The notes under the pieces: model-generated
Database searches by the model: none
Told to the model about the DNA's origin: nothing
Seen by the model: only the letters and a program-made list of their open reading frames with translations
Source: an uncultured archaeon
GTDB taxonomy: Archaea > Asgardarchaeota > Jordiarchaeia > Jordiarchaeales > Jordiarchaeaceae
Assembly (NCBI GenBank): GCA_964510585.1
Contig: CAZECW010000196.1
Coordinates: forward strand, 1 to 32,000
Length of the DNA stretch: 32,000 bases
Direction of reading: 5' to 3'
Program-made: the position numbers and the translations under genes
Shown: piece after piece, positions 1,307-10,646 of the stretch
Numbering within the stretch: position 1 is the first letter of the stretch
Layout: each line of letters opens with the position of its first letter

Positions 1307-1822
1307 ATGCCCACAAAAAACGTCGAAAATTTAGACAGACTGCCCGAGCTTCTAAGCTCGATTAGCAAAATAATCAATGATTTGACCGAAGCTTTTAGTA
1401 TAATATTGGGTGAGATTAATAATCGGCTTAAAGATATAGAGACTAAACACTTGGAGCTTGAGGCGCACGTGAAAAAAGAGGATTCAAACTTAAAAGATAA
1501 TCTTAAAAAATTAAAAGAGGAGCAGGAGAACTTAAATAACAAAATGGAACAAGGCGCAGCGAGTTTCCAAGCATCAATTAGAAATCTTACTGATGTCCAG
1601 ACAAGCATTCAATCAAATCTAAACTCTCTTGAAATTTCCATTCAAAAAATGGATAGAAAATATGAGGATGTAAATAGACTGATGGAAAAACGCTTAATGG
1701 AAATTGTGGAGAATATTTCAAACGTTGTTCACCCAGTTGAGATCTGGAATAAGGAGATGAGCGTTATTAAGGCTGAAGTAGCCAGGCTGTCTCGTGAAAT
1801 AGAAAAAAAGATTATCCGGTGA
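1307..1822 (+). CDS. Coiled-coil hypothetical protein
   Basis: Start moved to ATG 1307 (preceded by GGTG). Heptad-like L/I pattern over most of its 171 aa. Ends 7 nt before the amidohydrolase start. Confidence 0.75.
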   Translation: MPTKNVENLDRLPELLSSISKIINDLTEAFSIILGEINNRLKDIETKHLELEAHVKKEDSNLKDNLKKLKEEQENLNNKMEQGAASFQASIRNLTDVQTSIQSNLNSLEISIQKMDRKYEDVNRLMEKRLMEIVENISNVVHPVEIWNKEMSVIKAEVARLSREIEKKIIR

Positions 1823-1829
1823 TTAGTAA

Positions 1830-3305
1830 ATGCTTGAGTTTGAGGATGTCGAATCAAAAACAATTTTTCGTTTTTACATTGTGGACGCCCATCACCACTT
1901 GGGTGCGGATATCGATGGTCACAGTAATAGAAACCCAGTTGCACCAGGAGGGACCTTCGACTTCTACGTTAAAGTGGGAAAGAAACTCTCAAAGTTATTT
2001 TCCGATAAACCCCATATTTTCAGATACAGCCCACATGGTTTTTTAAATGAATTTATTAGAAATAATAAGAAATGGAAGGACACCCTAAATGGGTCTTGGG
2101 CTGTAGACCAAGTTGTTGTGTTCCCTTTTAACGATGAATTCAAATGGAGGGAGGGGGACGAAGGCAAGGCGATTTACTGGCGTTCCAATGACAACATCGG
2201 AAGATGGGTTACCCGTGCCCCTTACTCTTTAAGATTAATTGGCTTTGGGAGAGTAGTTCCCACCCAGAGAGAACTAGCTATAAGTGAGCTACACAGAGCT
2301 GTAGAACAATTAGGTCTGAGAGGATTGAAACTACATCCCAGATCCGACGGTTGGAGTAGCGATATTGCATCCCCAGAAGTGAAAAATGTTCTCGTTGAAG
2401 CGGCAAAACTTAACATTCCAGTTCTCTTTGACACACGGGGATTTGGTCAAGTGATGGATATACTCGAAGTAACAAAAATGGCTAGAAGCGAACTCCAATC
2501 CCAAAATAAGGCTTTGGTGGAGAACCTAAAGGTAATTATAGCCCACATTGGATTCCACCTGGGACAAAATGAACTATTCGACGTGTTGAGTCACCCCAAC
2601 ATTTATGGTGATACCTCTGGGGTTCACGACACCGGAATCCCTAGATTATTCGAGGAGGCCGTGCAATTATTACAGCCCAATCTTGGAAAGTATAGAAGCT
2701 GGTCAGAAAAAATAATTTTTGGAACAGATTACAACTATTTCGACGTGCCACACGCGGTGCAGTTCATTTCCTTCGTGTTGGGTAATGATTTTCCAGGCAC
2801 TCCTGAAGACGCTCAACGCATACTCGGTTCTAACCTTTTGAAACTGGTTCCCCCCTTTAATAGGGAAACAAAGTCAACCTTCAGGAAAGTACATGTACCC
2901 TTCGAATTGGCGGAATTAACCGAAAAAACTTTAGCGAAACAAATTGCCGATCTGGTGAGTAGTGAAACATATGATCTTTCAAGCATTGATTTCTTCATAG
3001 ATCCGCATCCTAAATTTCAAGTTAGACCCCAAGACTTCAAGATAACCATTTCCCGAAGAGAAAATGAGAGCTGTGAAGACATAAATCTTATAGTACTCTC
3101 CATGCTTGATATATTAACTATAGCAAGATTAGACAACACACTGATGAACTCGTCACCCATAAAAAACAGAATACTTAGATATGATGATGCTGCCTCCCGC
3201 AGAAGCTTTTACAAAAAGCTATGGCCGAGCCACCTAGAAAACAATCCCCAGGAAATGCACGACTTCATAAAATCGATTACTGAAATTGAGAGTTCAAAAC
3301 AATAA
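1830..3305 (+). CDS. Amidohydrolase_2-type TIM-barrel metallohydrolase with a ~140-aa C-terminal extension
   Basis: Motifs DAHHH, RGLKLHP, IIAHIG, IYGDTSG and KIIFGTDY. Confidence 0.88.
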   Translation: MLEFEDVESKTIFRFYIVDAHHHLGADIDGHSNRNPVAPGGTFDFYVKVGKKLSKLFSDKPHIFRYSPHGFLNEFIRNNKKWKDTLNGSWAVDQVVVFPFNDEFKWREGDEGKAIYWRSNDNIGRWVTRAPYSLRLIGFGRVVPTQRELAISELHRAVEQLGLRGLKLHPRSDGWSSDIASPEVKNVLVEAAKLNIPVLFDTRGFGQVMDILEVTKMARSELQSQNKALVENLKVIIAHIGFHLGQNELFDVLSHPNIYGDTSGVHDTGIPRLFEEAVQLLQPNLGKYRSWSEKIIFGTDYNYFDVPHAVQFISFVLGNDFPGTPEDAQRILGSNLLKLVPPFNRETKSTFRKVHVPFELAELTEKTLAKQIADLVSSETYDLSSIDFFIDPHPKFQVRPQDFKITISRRENESCEDINLIVLSMLDILTIARLDNTLMNSSPIKNRILRYDDAASRRSFYKKLWPSHLENNPQEMHDFIKSITEIESSKQ

Positions 3306-3451
3306 ATTTCAAAAAATAAGTAAAAATCTCCTTTAATAAATTTAAGTTTGTTTACACCACAAAAGAATTTAAGCTTTGAATCGAACCTTATCATAGGAAA
3401 AACCCGAAATTAAAGGGGGTCCTCTAAAAAAATAGGGAGGAAAGCCAAAAA

Positions 3452-8574: not shown

Positions 8575-8590
8575 TTTCTAATACCCTCCA

Positions 8591-9376
8591 CTAGGTGAAT
8601 TCTTTTTCGGCTATTTCACTAAAAGCTTGAATCAAATTGCGAATCTTGTCTGCTTCTACAATGTCGCTGGTAATAGTTAAGTCCAAGATGGAAACATCAA
8701 TATTTGCTGATTCCGCTATAACTTTTAAGCAGTAGGTGAGACTTCCCCCACCAAATACTCTGTCATCATCTATTATTTTATAACTTTCATTTAGCAATCC
8801 CTTAAGTTTACCGATAATATTGTGAGGATCTCTCCGAATATTTTTGTCGACAAAAATTTTACTTCCACCAGAGGGTAACATGGGAAGCGTTCTCAAATTA
8901 ACTATGATTCCCCCCTTACCCTTAGAGCTGCTAACCTTATCTACAAATAGCAGTTGAACAATTCTTGCTATGTTCTCGCTTACTTCCAATCTTCCTTCAG
9001 GGTCTGAAAAGAAAAAATATGAGAAAGGCTTACTCATACTCTCAAATTCCTGGTAAATCTTCTGAATAATGTCAAACAGCACTTCGTCGTCCTCTCCGTA
9101 GGAGGTGGAGCATACTGCAAAAGGAATTCCCACATTTTCAGTTTCGGAAACAGGACTTATTCTACCATAATTCTTGAAACTTTCCAACTCTTCCGTTACT
9201 AAGATCCTATCTACTGCCTTTTCTAAAAACGGAAAAACTTCCGTTTTATAGTTCGTAATCAACAAAACCGCCTCGTCCAGGGCAACCTTATATCTCTTTA
9301 ACAATTCCAAGAATTCCTCAGTTACTCGTTCAAACCTGCTAGTAATTTTCCCTGTTTCATTTTGGGTTTCCAACAT
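8591..9376 (-). CDS. Hypothetical protein; possibly a degenerate N-formylglutamate amidohydrolase / Zn-exopeptidase fold
   Basis: The ORF is clear. The motif order PFAVCSTSYG .. GIIVNLRT .. VFGGGSLTY .. ILDLTI parallels FGase PHxG .. IDxHS .. PYxGGxxT .. QIEI, but without the His/Glu ligands. Confidence 0.6.
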   Translation of the reverse strand: MLETQNETGKITSRFERVTEEFLELLKRYKVALDEAVLLITNYKTEVFPFLEKAVDRILVTEELESFKNYGRISPVSETENVGIPFAVCSTSYGEDDEVLFDIIQKIYQEFESMSKPFSYFFFSDPEGRLEVSENIARIVQLLFVDKVSSSKGKGGIIVNLRTLPMLPSGGSKIFVDKNIRRDPHNIIGKLKGLLNESYKIIDDDRVFGGGSLTYCLKVIAESANIDVSILDLTITSDIVEADKIRNLIQAFSEIAEKEFT

Positions 9377-9383
9377 CTGTCAC

Positions 9384-10646
9384 CTACTTACTTTCACGAA
9401 ACTCATTAATCAATCTAAGAATCTCCACCTCACGTTTCTTAAACTCACCCAGCTGTTCATTCAGAACATTAATACCGGCCCTGATTTCCCCAACCATATT
9501 CTCAATTATGGATGCCTTTGCATCCAGTAATTTAACAGCTTCCTCTAACCCCTCCATTTTCTCCAAACTAGACAATCTTGAATTTATGTTTTCGATTTTG
9601 CCCTCAAAAACCCTAATCCGGCTCACTTCCCTTTCCAAGTTCCTGACTCTCTCCTCCATTTGCATCAATCTTTTGCCGAAAAGATTAAATGGTTTGGCAT
9701 TTTCACGGCTCACAACTGTTTCCCCCTCAATATTTTCTGATTCGGGCTCAACCAAAATCTTCTTTTCTTTTTCCACACTCCCTTCAGCTAAGTCAGGAAT
9801 GGTTTCACTCCGAATAATTTCCTGATTCACAGTTCTCACATTGATTAGGGGCTCCCTTGTAATTTCTCTTTTCGGTTCCATTCCGCTAAGGTAAGCATCG
9901 TATACTTCTCCCAAAATCTCTGAAATCTCCCTGTTACTTGACTCCTCACCACTAGCAGAAAACACGCAGGTTATCTTATCCTTGTGGTTTAAACCCCAAA
10001 CTCCCACCTTACCACTCCTAAACCACAAAGTAAAAACACAGGAAGAAAACGTTTTATCTTCAAACCAGTTCTGAATAGACTTTACCAGCAGTAAAGACTC
10101 GCGAGACGAGTGTTCTCCCTTCTCCAACTCGTTTCTAACCCAAGCATAGTCCAATAGTCCACCCTCTGCGTTTCTCTCCAACCAGCTCGAGAATCCCTCC
10201 CTATAGATACCTAAACCTGTATATCTGTAGGAACGCTCCTCAAAACCCAAAATTGCAAATACGTGGGCAAGAAGATTTTTGGTGTCTTTCTCCCTAGTTC
10301 TAAAAACGCAGGTCCACTTCTCCCTACCGTCGCAAACACAGCAGAGCTTCTCCCCGTCAAAACTCAAAATAAGGATACAGGATAGTTCCACCTTATTAAT
10401 TAGAGACGAAACCACCTCACTCCTAAGCAGGTTCAAAAGCTTGACCACTGGAAAAGAATTCAAAGGATCAAGAAGAGGACCCCTAAACACACATAAACTA
10501 TGGGCCCTACCTGGATCACTTTCCAAAACCTCAAGAAACTCTGGCAACTCGTCCGTATTAACAAAAACATAGCCAGTAACGTTCCCAAGACGTACACCAT
10601 ACCACTTCGTAAGCCAACCCTTCAACTCTTCTGCGTGCCTCTTCAT
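9384..10646 (-). CDS. Hypothetical protein: two internal repeats (Roadblock/longin-like), acidic linker and C-terminal ~100-aa coiled coil
   Basis: Start moved to ATG 10646 (GGTGG upstream). Repeats: SCILILSFDGEKLCCVCDGREKWTCVF and SCVFTLWFRSGKVGVWGLNHKDKITCVF. Heptads run from RLMQMEERV to the end. Confidence 0.7.
   Translation of the reverse strand: MKRHAEELKGWLTKWYGVRLGNVTGYVFVNTDELPEFLEVLESDPGRAHSLCVFRGPLLDPLNSFPVVKLLNLLRSEVVSSLINKVELSCILILSFDGEKLCCVCDGREKWTCVFRTREKDTKNLLAHVFAILGFEERSYRYTGLGIYREGFSSWLERNAEGGLLDYAWVRNELEKGEHSSRESLLLVKSIQNWFEDKTFSSCVFTLWFRSGKVGVWGLNHKDKITCVFSASGEESSNREISEILGEVYDAYLSGMEPKREITREPLINVRTVNQEIIRSETIPDLAEGSVEKEKKILVEPESENIEGETVVSRENAKPFNLFGKRLMQMEERVRNLEREVSRIRVFEGKIENINSRLSSLEKMEGLEEAVKLLDAKASIIENMVGEIRAGINVLNEQLGEFKKREVEILRLINEFRESK

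Follow-up and report, generated by a model that had tools for sequence, protein, structure and literature searches.

An Asgard-restricted, co-inherited module of four core genes built around a divergent GCS2-type ligase

Do the six open reading frames (ORFs) at positions 1307-10646 of the window belong to one system, and what could such a system do? The window is the whole stretch of DNA analysed here, 32,000 nucleotides at the start of contig CAZECW010000196.1 from an uncultured Asgard archaeon. The contig is 55.7 kb long and belongs to a genome of 3.78 Mb that is 96 % complete. The closest protein relatives are labelled Freyarchaeota/Jordarchaeia, and the public DNA runs matching the window are hot-spring metagenomes; no RNA data are listed among these matching runs. 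A sequence-only reading of the stretch had described two convergent three-gene units and proposed that they encode an amide-ligation or protein-tagging system. All six ORFs are indeed present in this arrangement, with the stop codons of the two units 59 nt apart. Four of the genes, coding for a ligase, a partner protein resembling N-formylglutamate amidohydrolase (FGase), an Amidohydro_2 enzyme and a Cdc48N-VWA protein, constitute the core of a genuine, uncharacterised, co-inherited module restricted to Asgard archaea. As to its function, we tentatively suggest, with slightly less than even confidence, that the module serves to form, recognise and turn over an amide linkage of the gamma-glutamyl or isopeptide type on a peptide- or protein-sized substrate. 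The genes are laid out as follows:

1307-1822 (or 1259-1822), + strand: coiled-coil protein, 171 aa (187 aa if started from GTG 1259); weak coiled-coil-type matches only
1830-3305, + strand: Amidohydro_2 enzyme, 491 aa; Pfam E 5.5e-16
3452-4948, + strand: Cdc48N-VWA protein, 498 aa; Pfam VWA/VWA_2, with CDC48_N in relatives
5008-8574, - strand: whole ligase protein, 1188 aa; GCS2 plus tail
7165-8574, - strand: ligase domain, aa 1-470 of the 1188-aa protein; Pfam GCS2
5008-7164, - strand: immunoglobulin (Ig)-like tail, aa ~471-1188 of the 1188-aa protein; hhalign self-matches
8591-9376, - strand: FGase-like partner protein, 261 aa; AlphaFold2 (AF2) model
9384-10646, - strand: 420/427-aa protein with a C-terminal coiled coil; no Pfam match

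No transmembrane-like stretch is present in any of the six proteins, and all module proteins look soluble and cytoplasmic. Five of the six had no NCBIfam match above noise. Neither the Rfam scan nor the tRNA scan of the window found anything, and a promoter and terminator scan with bacterial-type models returned no more hits than in shuffled sequence.

Functional linkage between the two units, initially suggested by adjacency, is now supported well beyond it. The same sample of 301 Asgard genomes from 30 families was surveyed for three of the gene families. The ligase N-domain was found in 170 genomes, Amidohydro_2 in 172 and Cdc48N-VWA in 174, and all three fall in the same ten families (f1, f2, f6, f7, f9, f21, f23, f26, f27, and f28). 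None of the three was found in the other 20 families, except for two weak amidohydrolase hits, and the counts taken family by family hardly differ. Where a family has the module, almost every sampled genome carries it, in single or double copy.

Neighbourhoods were compared across 42 loci, taking ORFs of at least 70 aa into account. The units are convergent with the VWA gene between them in the Jord/Frey loci (this genus and its sister family) and in two further lineages (L006, L018), while L005 has an amidohydrolase>ligase>VWA operon and family f27 the order amidohydrolase>ligase. The Loki-type order is ligase>amidohydrolase, adjacent and co-directional, and Thor-type loci are convergent with a constant spacing of ~12 kb. 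Linkage persists in at least five gene orders or orientations. According to hand counts from the listed genome rows, both genes are located on the same contig, within ~5 kb of each other, in 59 of 60 short-type genomes (42 of them directly adjacent), and 34 Thor-type genomes have the convergent arrangement with a spacing of 9-13.6 kb. As for the neighbourhood conservation that the sequence-only reading had put forward as a check, the four core genes are kept across Asgard lineages, while the two coiled-coil genes are lineage-specific.

Quick maximum-likelihood trees of the ligase, Amidohydro_2 and Cdc48N-VWA families share one deep split into types I and II, with Shimodaira-Hasegawa-like approximate likelihood ratio test (SH-aLRT) support of 99, 99, and 100, respectively. 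This genome has a second set of the genes, on contig C47, which each of the three trees places with L005 and f27. The congruent split and the uniform grouping of the second set show that duplication or transfer affected the set as a whole. All this bears on an alternative in which the genes have no common function and are neighbours by inherited synteny or chance. Among related genomes, some sharing of gene content and order is to be expected, and the Thor halves lie ~8 kb apart with unrelated genes (DUF92, Band_7, NfeD, Rce1-like, HEAT) between them. However, linkage in so many orders, matching presence and absence over 30 families and the common deep split strongly disfavour such an explanation, and we consider it very improbable.

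The ligase domain matches Pfam GCS2 (PF04107) with 39 bits against a gathering cut-off of 21. Among solved structures, E. coli YbdK matches it best (1r8g, E 1.8e-12; 1r8g/1tt4 at E ~2e-12). Motif conservation was evaluated in an alignment of 132 relatives and judged against the superfamily motifs for carboxylate-amine ligases: GhExE in strand 1, [HD]x[NH] in strand 4 and Ex[RK]xxD in strand 6 (PMC2588565). The GhExE motif is represented by G17-I-E19-M-E21, where G17, E19 and E21 are each conserved in at least 90 % of the relatives. E117, the glutamate of ELxT, is invariant or nearly so, the HxH motif (H170-H-H172) is invariant, and ExRxxD (E282-x-R284-x-x-D287) is found in 130 of the 132 sequences. 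The strand-5 arginine of YbdK (WWDxRP) is missing, its place being taken by Y (90) or F (38 of 132 relatives). Three other arginines, R227, R230 and R268, are conserved specifically in this clade, and R268 is located five residues upstream of the Y/F position. Compared to YbdK, the ligase also has a ~65-aa insert, a ~22-aa deletion and a ~20-aa insert carrying APxCxRSIRL. Since the ATP/Mg motifs are kept while the strand-5 arginine has become aromatic and new arginines are present, the ATP/Mg machinery is intact and the substrate site remodelled. These features indicate a divergent but, by its motifs, catalytically competent YbdK/GCS2-type enzyme of an Asgard clade, in agreement with the glutamate-cysteine-ligase-fold enzyme with a beta-sandwich tail recognised earlier.

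The kinship with YbdK leads to the most serious rival explanation, a small-molecule pathway. In such a pathway the ligase product would be an amide metabolite or cofactor precursor, for instance a gamma-glutamyl-amine or a thiol dipeptide, which the Amidohydro_2 enzyme would then decarboxylate, hydrate or hydrolyse, and the VWA, Ig and helical proteins would only regulate or scaffold. We regard this as a real possibility, though a rather doubtful one. The named enzymes most closely related to the ligase are carboxylate-amine ligases of the YbdK type; carboxylate-amine ligases lacking a Pup-like neighbour were argued to be probable producers of peptide metabolites (PMC2588565), and a YbdK-like enzyme was tied to dipeptide biosynthesis (PMC13674229), both of which favour the pathway. 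On the other hand, the clade is sharply set apart from generic YbdK (Asgard relatives at E 1e-57 or lower, generic YbdK at 1e-15 or weaker) and lacks the canonical strand-5 arginine. No transporter or further pathway enzyme is kept with the module across lineages in the 42 loci. Six cytoplasmic Ig-like domains, a pseudo-hydrolase partner and a Cdc48N protein with a metal ion-dependent adhesion site (MIDAS) are also unexpected for a simple metabolic pair.

The Ig-like tail of the ligase consists of about six internal repeats of ~110 aa each, with an hhalign self-match probability of up to 97.6 %; self-matches occur at offsets of ~110, 265 and 375 aa (probability 88-98 %). By Atlas features (0.92), the tail resembles the CARDB/NPCBM_assoc Ig/beta-sandwich domains. 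It has neither a signal peptide nor a transmembrane segment. A Rosetta-stone link between the tail and the N-terminal Ig-like domain of the ~620-aa protein encoded upstream of the Loki-type ligase was considered and dropped, as the comparison gave a probability of 24 % only.

A ligase of the same clade with an Ig tail (892 aa) was also found in locus L004 (5260-8596), which belongs to a metagenome-assembled genome labelled Thermoplasmatota. Its start overlaps a BcrAD_BadFG (ASKHA) gene, and there is no VWA or Amidohydro_2 gene on its 12.7-kb contig. This occurrence outside Asgard-labelled genomes could be a result of transfer or of a binning error.

The 261-aa protein is encoded next to the ligase, on the same strand. 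Its AF2 model, obtained from a 14-sequence alignment, has a predicted local distance difference test score (pLDDT) of 85 and shows a long N-terminal helix (aa 4-70, ~70 residues) followed by an alpha/beta domain. This domain resembles N-formylglutamate amidohydrolase (VIA: 2q7s, Z 12.6, 177 aligned, root-mean-square deviation 3.4; 2odf, Z 11.5). Foldseek gave 2odf (2.9e-5) and PghP (3a9l, 4.7e-5), with YndL among the best matches and other zinc peptidases after them. The protein has no Pfam match and thus stays outside the FGase (PF05013) and Gamma_PGA_hydro (PF05908) sequence families. A hidden Markov model search of 1.84 billion proteins with the 261-aa family retrieved only 52 clusters of 55-260 aa, which is the family's own size; the family is an orphan. 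A search of the family alignment for the zinc-binding His/Glu/His found no conserved metal ligand and no column with at least 50 % His; only D204 and G209-G211 (a GGG loop) are conserved at 90 % or more. Since no histidine is conserved and only D204 and the GGG loop are kept, the protein is most likely a pseudo-enzyme, as its model and alignment suggest. It is the protein that had been called degenerate and amidohydrolase-like, and the FGase-like fold devoid of conserved metal ligands bears this description out.

A homologue of the 261-aa protein, either as a gene or as a domain, is located directly upstream of every type-I ligase, including those of the Thor, Sif, Asgardarchaeia-type and Loki-type loci. 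The hhalign probability is 97 % for the match of the family to the small protein upstream of the Thor/Sif-type ligase, and 93 % for its match to the C-terminal domain of the ~620-aa protein encoded upstream of the ligase in Loki-type loci. It is absent from type-II sets. The 261-aa family is the fourth core part of the module, shared by the type-I sets. A complex prediction for the ligase domain with this partner scored 0.00, which is evidence in neither direction.

The 491-aa protein matches Pfam Amidohydro_2 (PF04909) with 59.6 bits against a cut-off of 26.4 (E 5.5e-16). It is composed of a TIM barrel (aa 14-340) and an extra C-terminal alpha/beta domain of ~140 aa (aa ~350-490), modelled by AF2 with a pLDDT of 88.5 and a predicted template modelling score of 0.91. 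D19, H21, H23, K167, H169, D201, H239 and D300 are conserved in 36-37 relatives. The HxH/His/His/Asp metal site is complete: among 36 relatives, H169, H239 and D300 never vary, while H21 and H23 are conserved in at least 90 %. Conservation of this kind indicates a metalloenzyme with an intact metal site, and the metallo-amidohydrolase assignment made earlier is upheld in this sense.

The role of an eraser, assigned to this protein in the same reading, fares worse. The closest structures are LigW (4inf, Foldseek E 1.5e-9), gamma-resorcylate decarboxylase, IDCase, ACMSD, the LigJ hydratase and lactonases, at 12-18 % identity. As these relatives are decarboxylases, a hydratase and lactonases rather than amidases, the name "amidohydrolase" need not mean amide cleavage. 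That the nearest structures of the TIM-barrel enzyme act on small molecules is a further point in favour of the small-molecule pathway.

The 498-aa protein starts with an acidic disordered head (aa 1-75), followed by a Cdc48-N-like region (aa ~76-245) and a VWA domain (aa ~250-498). Pfam VWA/VWA_2 matches are above the cut-off, and the MIDAS is complete, with D260-x-S262-x-S264, T385 and D419 invariant in 23 relatives. Pfam CDC48_N (PF02359) matches 10 of the 23 relatives (best E 6.7e-10), while the window protein gives no match at E 0.01. Its N-region can, however, be aligned in register to the N-domain of this genome's own Cdc48 (BLASTP E 0.009). The region preceding the VWA domain is probably Cdc48-N-like on this basis, in line with the Cdc48-N/VWA fusion described previously.

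A third Cdc48N-VWA paralogue is encoded on contig C11 (L039: 9056-10336) and shares 43 % identity with the 498-aa protein of the window. There is no ligase or amidohydrolase on that 11.5-kb contig.

The remaining two of the six proteins are of a different standing. The 427-aa protein starts with a globular part of unknown fold, continues with an acidic linker and ends in a coiled coil, its C-terminal ~100 aa being heptad-rich. It has no Pfam match. The tandem repeat previously attributed to it is the one of the six protein descriptions that was not confirmed, as profile self-comparison found nothing; the other five hold. A weak Atlas structure lead pointed to Robl_LC7/longin (template modelling score 0.54, model pLDDT 0.49); profile comparison with a Roadblock family found nothing. 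Homologues of the 427-aa protein are confined to the Jord/Frey loci. The 171-aa coiled-coil gene, located 8 nt upstream of the amidohydrolase gene, has a homologue in one further locus among the 42. Both coiled-coil proteins of the window are lineage-specific accessories, at the level of the genus or order. In other lineages the same positions are occupied by unrelated helical or coiled-coil proteins. No relation was found among the upstream partners, namely the 427-aa protein, a Thor 145-aa protein, a ~770-aa coiled-coil/CarboxypepD_reg protein and the N-part of the Loki 620-aa protein. The idea that these proteins serve as scaffolds or tags finds no support in such a distribution, and no Pup-like ORF is conserved across lineages among those of at least 70 aa.

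These results bear on the Pup-like cycle envisaged in the sequence-only reading, in which the ligase tags proteins, the amidohydrolase erases the tag, the Cdc48N-VWA protein delivers the clients to a Cdc48-type unfoldase and the coiled coils are tags or scaffolds. This cycle is a subset of the amide-linkage function that we favour, and we consider it improbable. It gains from the ligase sharing its fold superfamily with PafA (PMC2588565) and from the nature of the Cdc48-N-like domain and MIDAS VWA, which are docking modules. Yet the strand-6 motif of the ligase is ExRxxD of the GCS2 type and not that of PafA, the candidate eraser is unrelated to Dop, and among ORFs of at least 70 aa no tag recurs from lineage to lineage, the coiled-coil proteins being lineage-specific and mutually unrelated. 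The proposed adaptor function towards an AAA unfoldase is not borne out either: no AAA or proteasome gene is found in the conserved neighbourhoods of the 42 loci, where Cdc48 is adjacent only in L007 and L038.

The second of these loci is the C47 set. The genome has only two GCS2-fold genes, and both are long ligases above the Pfam cut-off. Family searches of the genome gave the following layout for the second set:

C47 (L038), 1432-17801: second, type-II set, with a 1371-aa ligase on the - strand
C47, 3712-5247: amidohydrolase
C47, 8441-9769: Cdc48N-VWA protein
C47, 9788-13903, - strand: ligase, 1371 aa in a 1388-aa open frame

Genes for a helix-turn-helix (HTH) regulator, HSP20 and a complete Cdc48 AAA ATPase of 733 aa flank this set, and this speaks for the Pup-like cycle. 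So does a 93-aa protein ending with ISQ that accompanies this set together with a 522-aa protein, as their homologues do in three other loci. The ISQ-ending protein (90-116 aa; the called ORF ends with IS in one locus) belongs to the type-II set only and was found in these four loci. The Cdc48/HSP20 adjacency of the C47-type set is, in turn, confined to this genus, and Cdc48 is missing beside the same paralogous set in L012 and L014.

Between its amidohydrolase and VWA genes, the C47 set is interrupted by two insertions, an AbiEi/DUF6577-type gene and a 382-aa gene. Such an AbiEi/DUF6577-type gene pair, as well as the occurrence of VWA, coiled-coil and Ig-like domains in defence systems, could hint at a conflict or defence system acting, e.g., through effector activation or tagging of invader proteins. 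We find this hardly credible. PADLOC gave coiled-coil noise only and no real match, the single or double copy in nearly all sampled members of the bearing families suggests vertical inheritance, and the flanks in several lineages are housekeeping genes, not a defence island.

What, then, might the four core proteins do together? If the module acts on an amide linkage in a peptide or protein, as we tentatively favour, the ligase would use ATP/Mg to turn a carboxylate into an acyl-phosphate and couple this to an amine. The 261-aa partner might bind the glutamyl-type substrate or regulate the ligase as its subunit, and the Amidohydro_2 enzyme would process or remove the ligase product. The MIDAS of the VWA domain should bind a partner's carboxylate, so that the Cdc48N-VWA protein would act as a binder, and the binding domains would presumably hold the substrate. 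The order of these steps, the existence of a physical complex and the nature of the substrate are, like the chemistry, what we infer, while the presence of the genes, their domains, the conserved motifs, the co-occurrence, the linkage and the duplication as a set are directly observed. The FGase/PghP-like fold, the loss of the canonical arginine, the Ig array and the MIDAS all point to glutamyl-type amide chemistry on something bigger than a metabolite, and an Ig array, a VWA domain, a Cdc48-N-like domain and helical partners would be unusual beside a small-molecule enzyme.

Several observations weigh against this proposal. To our knowledge, every characterised YbdK/GCS2 enzyme, including those found in this analysis, acts on small molecules. 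The characterised Amidohydro_2 relatives decarboxylate, hydrate or open lactones of small molecules and are not engaged in peptide or isopeptide cleavage. Among ORFs of at least 70 aa, none besides the four core genes is conserved across lineages as a Pup-like tag would be, which also suits the small-molecule pathway. Loki-type ligases have no Ig tail, and the VWA gene is often 20-100 kb away there. Finally, since the genomes are related and the module-bearing families may form one clade, the phyletic match does not represent many independent events, and the shared pattern may be a single gain.

An extended version of the same proposal can be formulated as well. We speculate that Asgard archaea could have their own specific means of reversibly modifying proteins or peptides, independently of ubiquitin and Pup. 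The GCS2 ligase with the pseudo-FGase as its specificity subunit would write a gamma-glutamyl or isopeptide mark, the TIM-barrel enzyme would remove it, and the MIDAS-VWA/Cdc48-N protein would read it and may pass clients to the proteostasis machinery. We deem this version unlikely, although not to the degree of the Pup-like cycle.

Several neighbours of the core genes were considered. A ~290-320-aa protein, which is gelsolin-like by eye and has no Pfam match, is encoded next to the amidohydrolase or VWA gene in L011 (7947-8819), L032, L033, and L044, loci that come from distant lineages. Its gene is probably not a part of the module and was rejected as such; the homologue in this genome is on another contig, C65. 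In the related genome of L011, the gelsolin-like gene occupies the flank corresponding to window positions 1-920. In the window this flank, which abuts the module, is GC-rich (53 % vs ~41 % nearby) and contains broken frames at 2-439 (+ strand) and 486-905 (- strand); by eye, it looks like a degraded IS630-type transposase.

On the other side of the module, an SCP2 sterol-carrier-like gene is located at 10948-11328, followed by three PaaK-like ORFs that cluster by BLASTP: 11401-12729 (- strand), 13019-14041 (+ strand) and 14054-15406 (+ strand). Of the three, only the first was scanned with Pfam, where it matched AMP-binding. These SCP2-like and PaaK-like genes (10948-15406) are not kept with the module in other lineages. 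In the Loki-type loci (L026-L043), the module is located between isoprenoid genes (undecaprenyl-diphosphate-synthase-like, HMG-CoA synthase, HMG-CoA reductase) and a Roadblock/LC7 gene, and these flanks probably reflect lineage synteny only.

No known organisms are more closely related to eukaryotes than the Asgard archaea. A module found only in this group, and retained by almost every sampled member of several large families, may belong to the cell biology that defines the lineage. An enzyme that forms amides, has a pocket unlike that of any studied relative and is associated with reader-type domains could reveal a new post-translational modification or metabolite; if its product is only a small metabolite, the module would be a modest addition to the diversity of the YbdK family. 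A ligase homologue is present in Lokiarchaeum ossiferum, which is in culture, and together with the seemingly soluble nature of the proteins this makes the module amenable to testing.

How does the module compare to the systems already described? A literature search found no paper describing it; a paper on a Klebsiella "amidoligase" was discarded as a precedent, since the enzyme is of the ATP-grasp type and irrelevant here. By most of its defining motifs the ligase belongs to the GCS2 superfamily, and it lies outside the YbdK/GshA equivalogs: among the NCBIfam models TIGR02050 and NF010039-45, the best score is 95 bits against a threshold of 176, and the others are 45-86 against 332-437. YbdK/GCS2 enzymes (PF04107; 1r8g, 1tt4) have the same fold and the same GhExE, E of ELxT, HxH and ExRxxD. 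The module ligase differs from YbdK in having only ~24-30 % identity over half the domain and in the fusion with ~700 aa of Ig-like repeats or, in the Loki-type, with a low-complexity head.

Pupylation (PafA, Dop, Pup, Mpa/ARC-proteasome) has in common with the module the ligase superfamily, the pairing of a ligase with a hydrolase fold and possible docking modules (PMC2588565). The module, in contrast, has no conserved Pup-like protein with a C-terminal G[EQ] nearby (ORFs of at least 70 aa), its hydrolase candidates (the TIM barrel and the FGase-like pseudo-enzyme) are unrelated to Dop, and there is no ligase-homologous Dop in the genome. The strand-6 motif is of the GCS2 type, and no proteasome or AAA gene is a conserved neighbour. 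The zinc hydrolases FGase, PghP and YndL have the fold of the 261-aa protein, which lacks their zinc ligands and has an added 70-aa N-terminal helix. Likewise, Amidohydro_2 enzymes share the TIM barrel and the metal site with the 491-aa protein, which is distinguished by the extra ~140-aa C-terminal domain and by its co-inheritance with the ligase and VWA genes.

Like the module, the VWA adaptor systems of MoxR-type AAA+ ATPases (CbbO/CbbQ, ViaA/RavA, NorD/NorQ) have a MIDAS-bearing VWA protein that would bind an acidic residue of the client. The module differs from these systems in having no conserved AAA+ neighbour (no MoxR-type ATPase is adjacent in the 42 loci surveyed) and in the fusion of its VWA to a Cdc48-N-like domain. 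The nearest counterpart is the Loki-type version of the module itself, which shares the ligase clade and the Amidohydro_2 family and likewise has a large partner protein encoded upstream. The window version differs from it by the Ig tail of the ligase, by an FGase-like unit that is separate instead of being the C-terminal domain of a ~620-aa protein, by the adjacent VWA gene and by the second, type-II set in the genome.

As a whole, the module matches no described system, being neither pupylation nor a MoxR-VWA system. It can be considered a carboxylate-amine ligase system that could turn out to be a new modification system. What the present survey adds are the Cdc48N-VWA protein as a member of the set, the FGase-like pseudo-enzyme as a core part, the split into types I and II and the clade-wide arginine substitution in the ligase.

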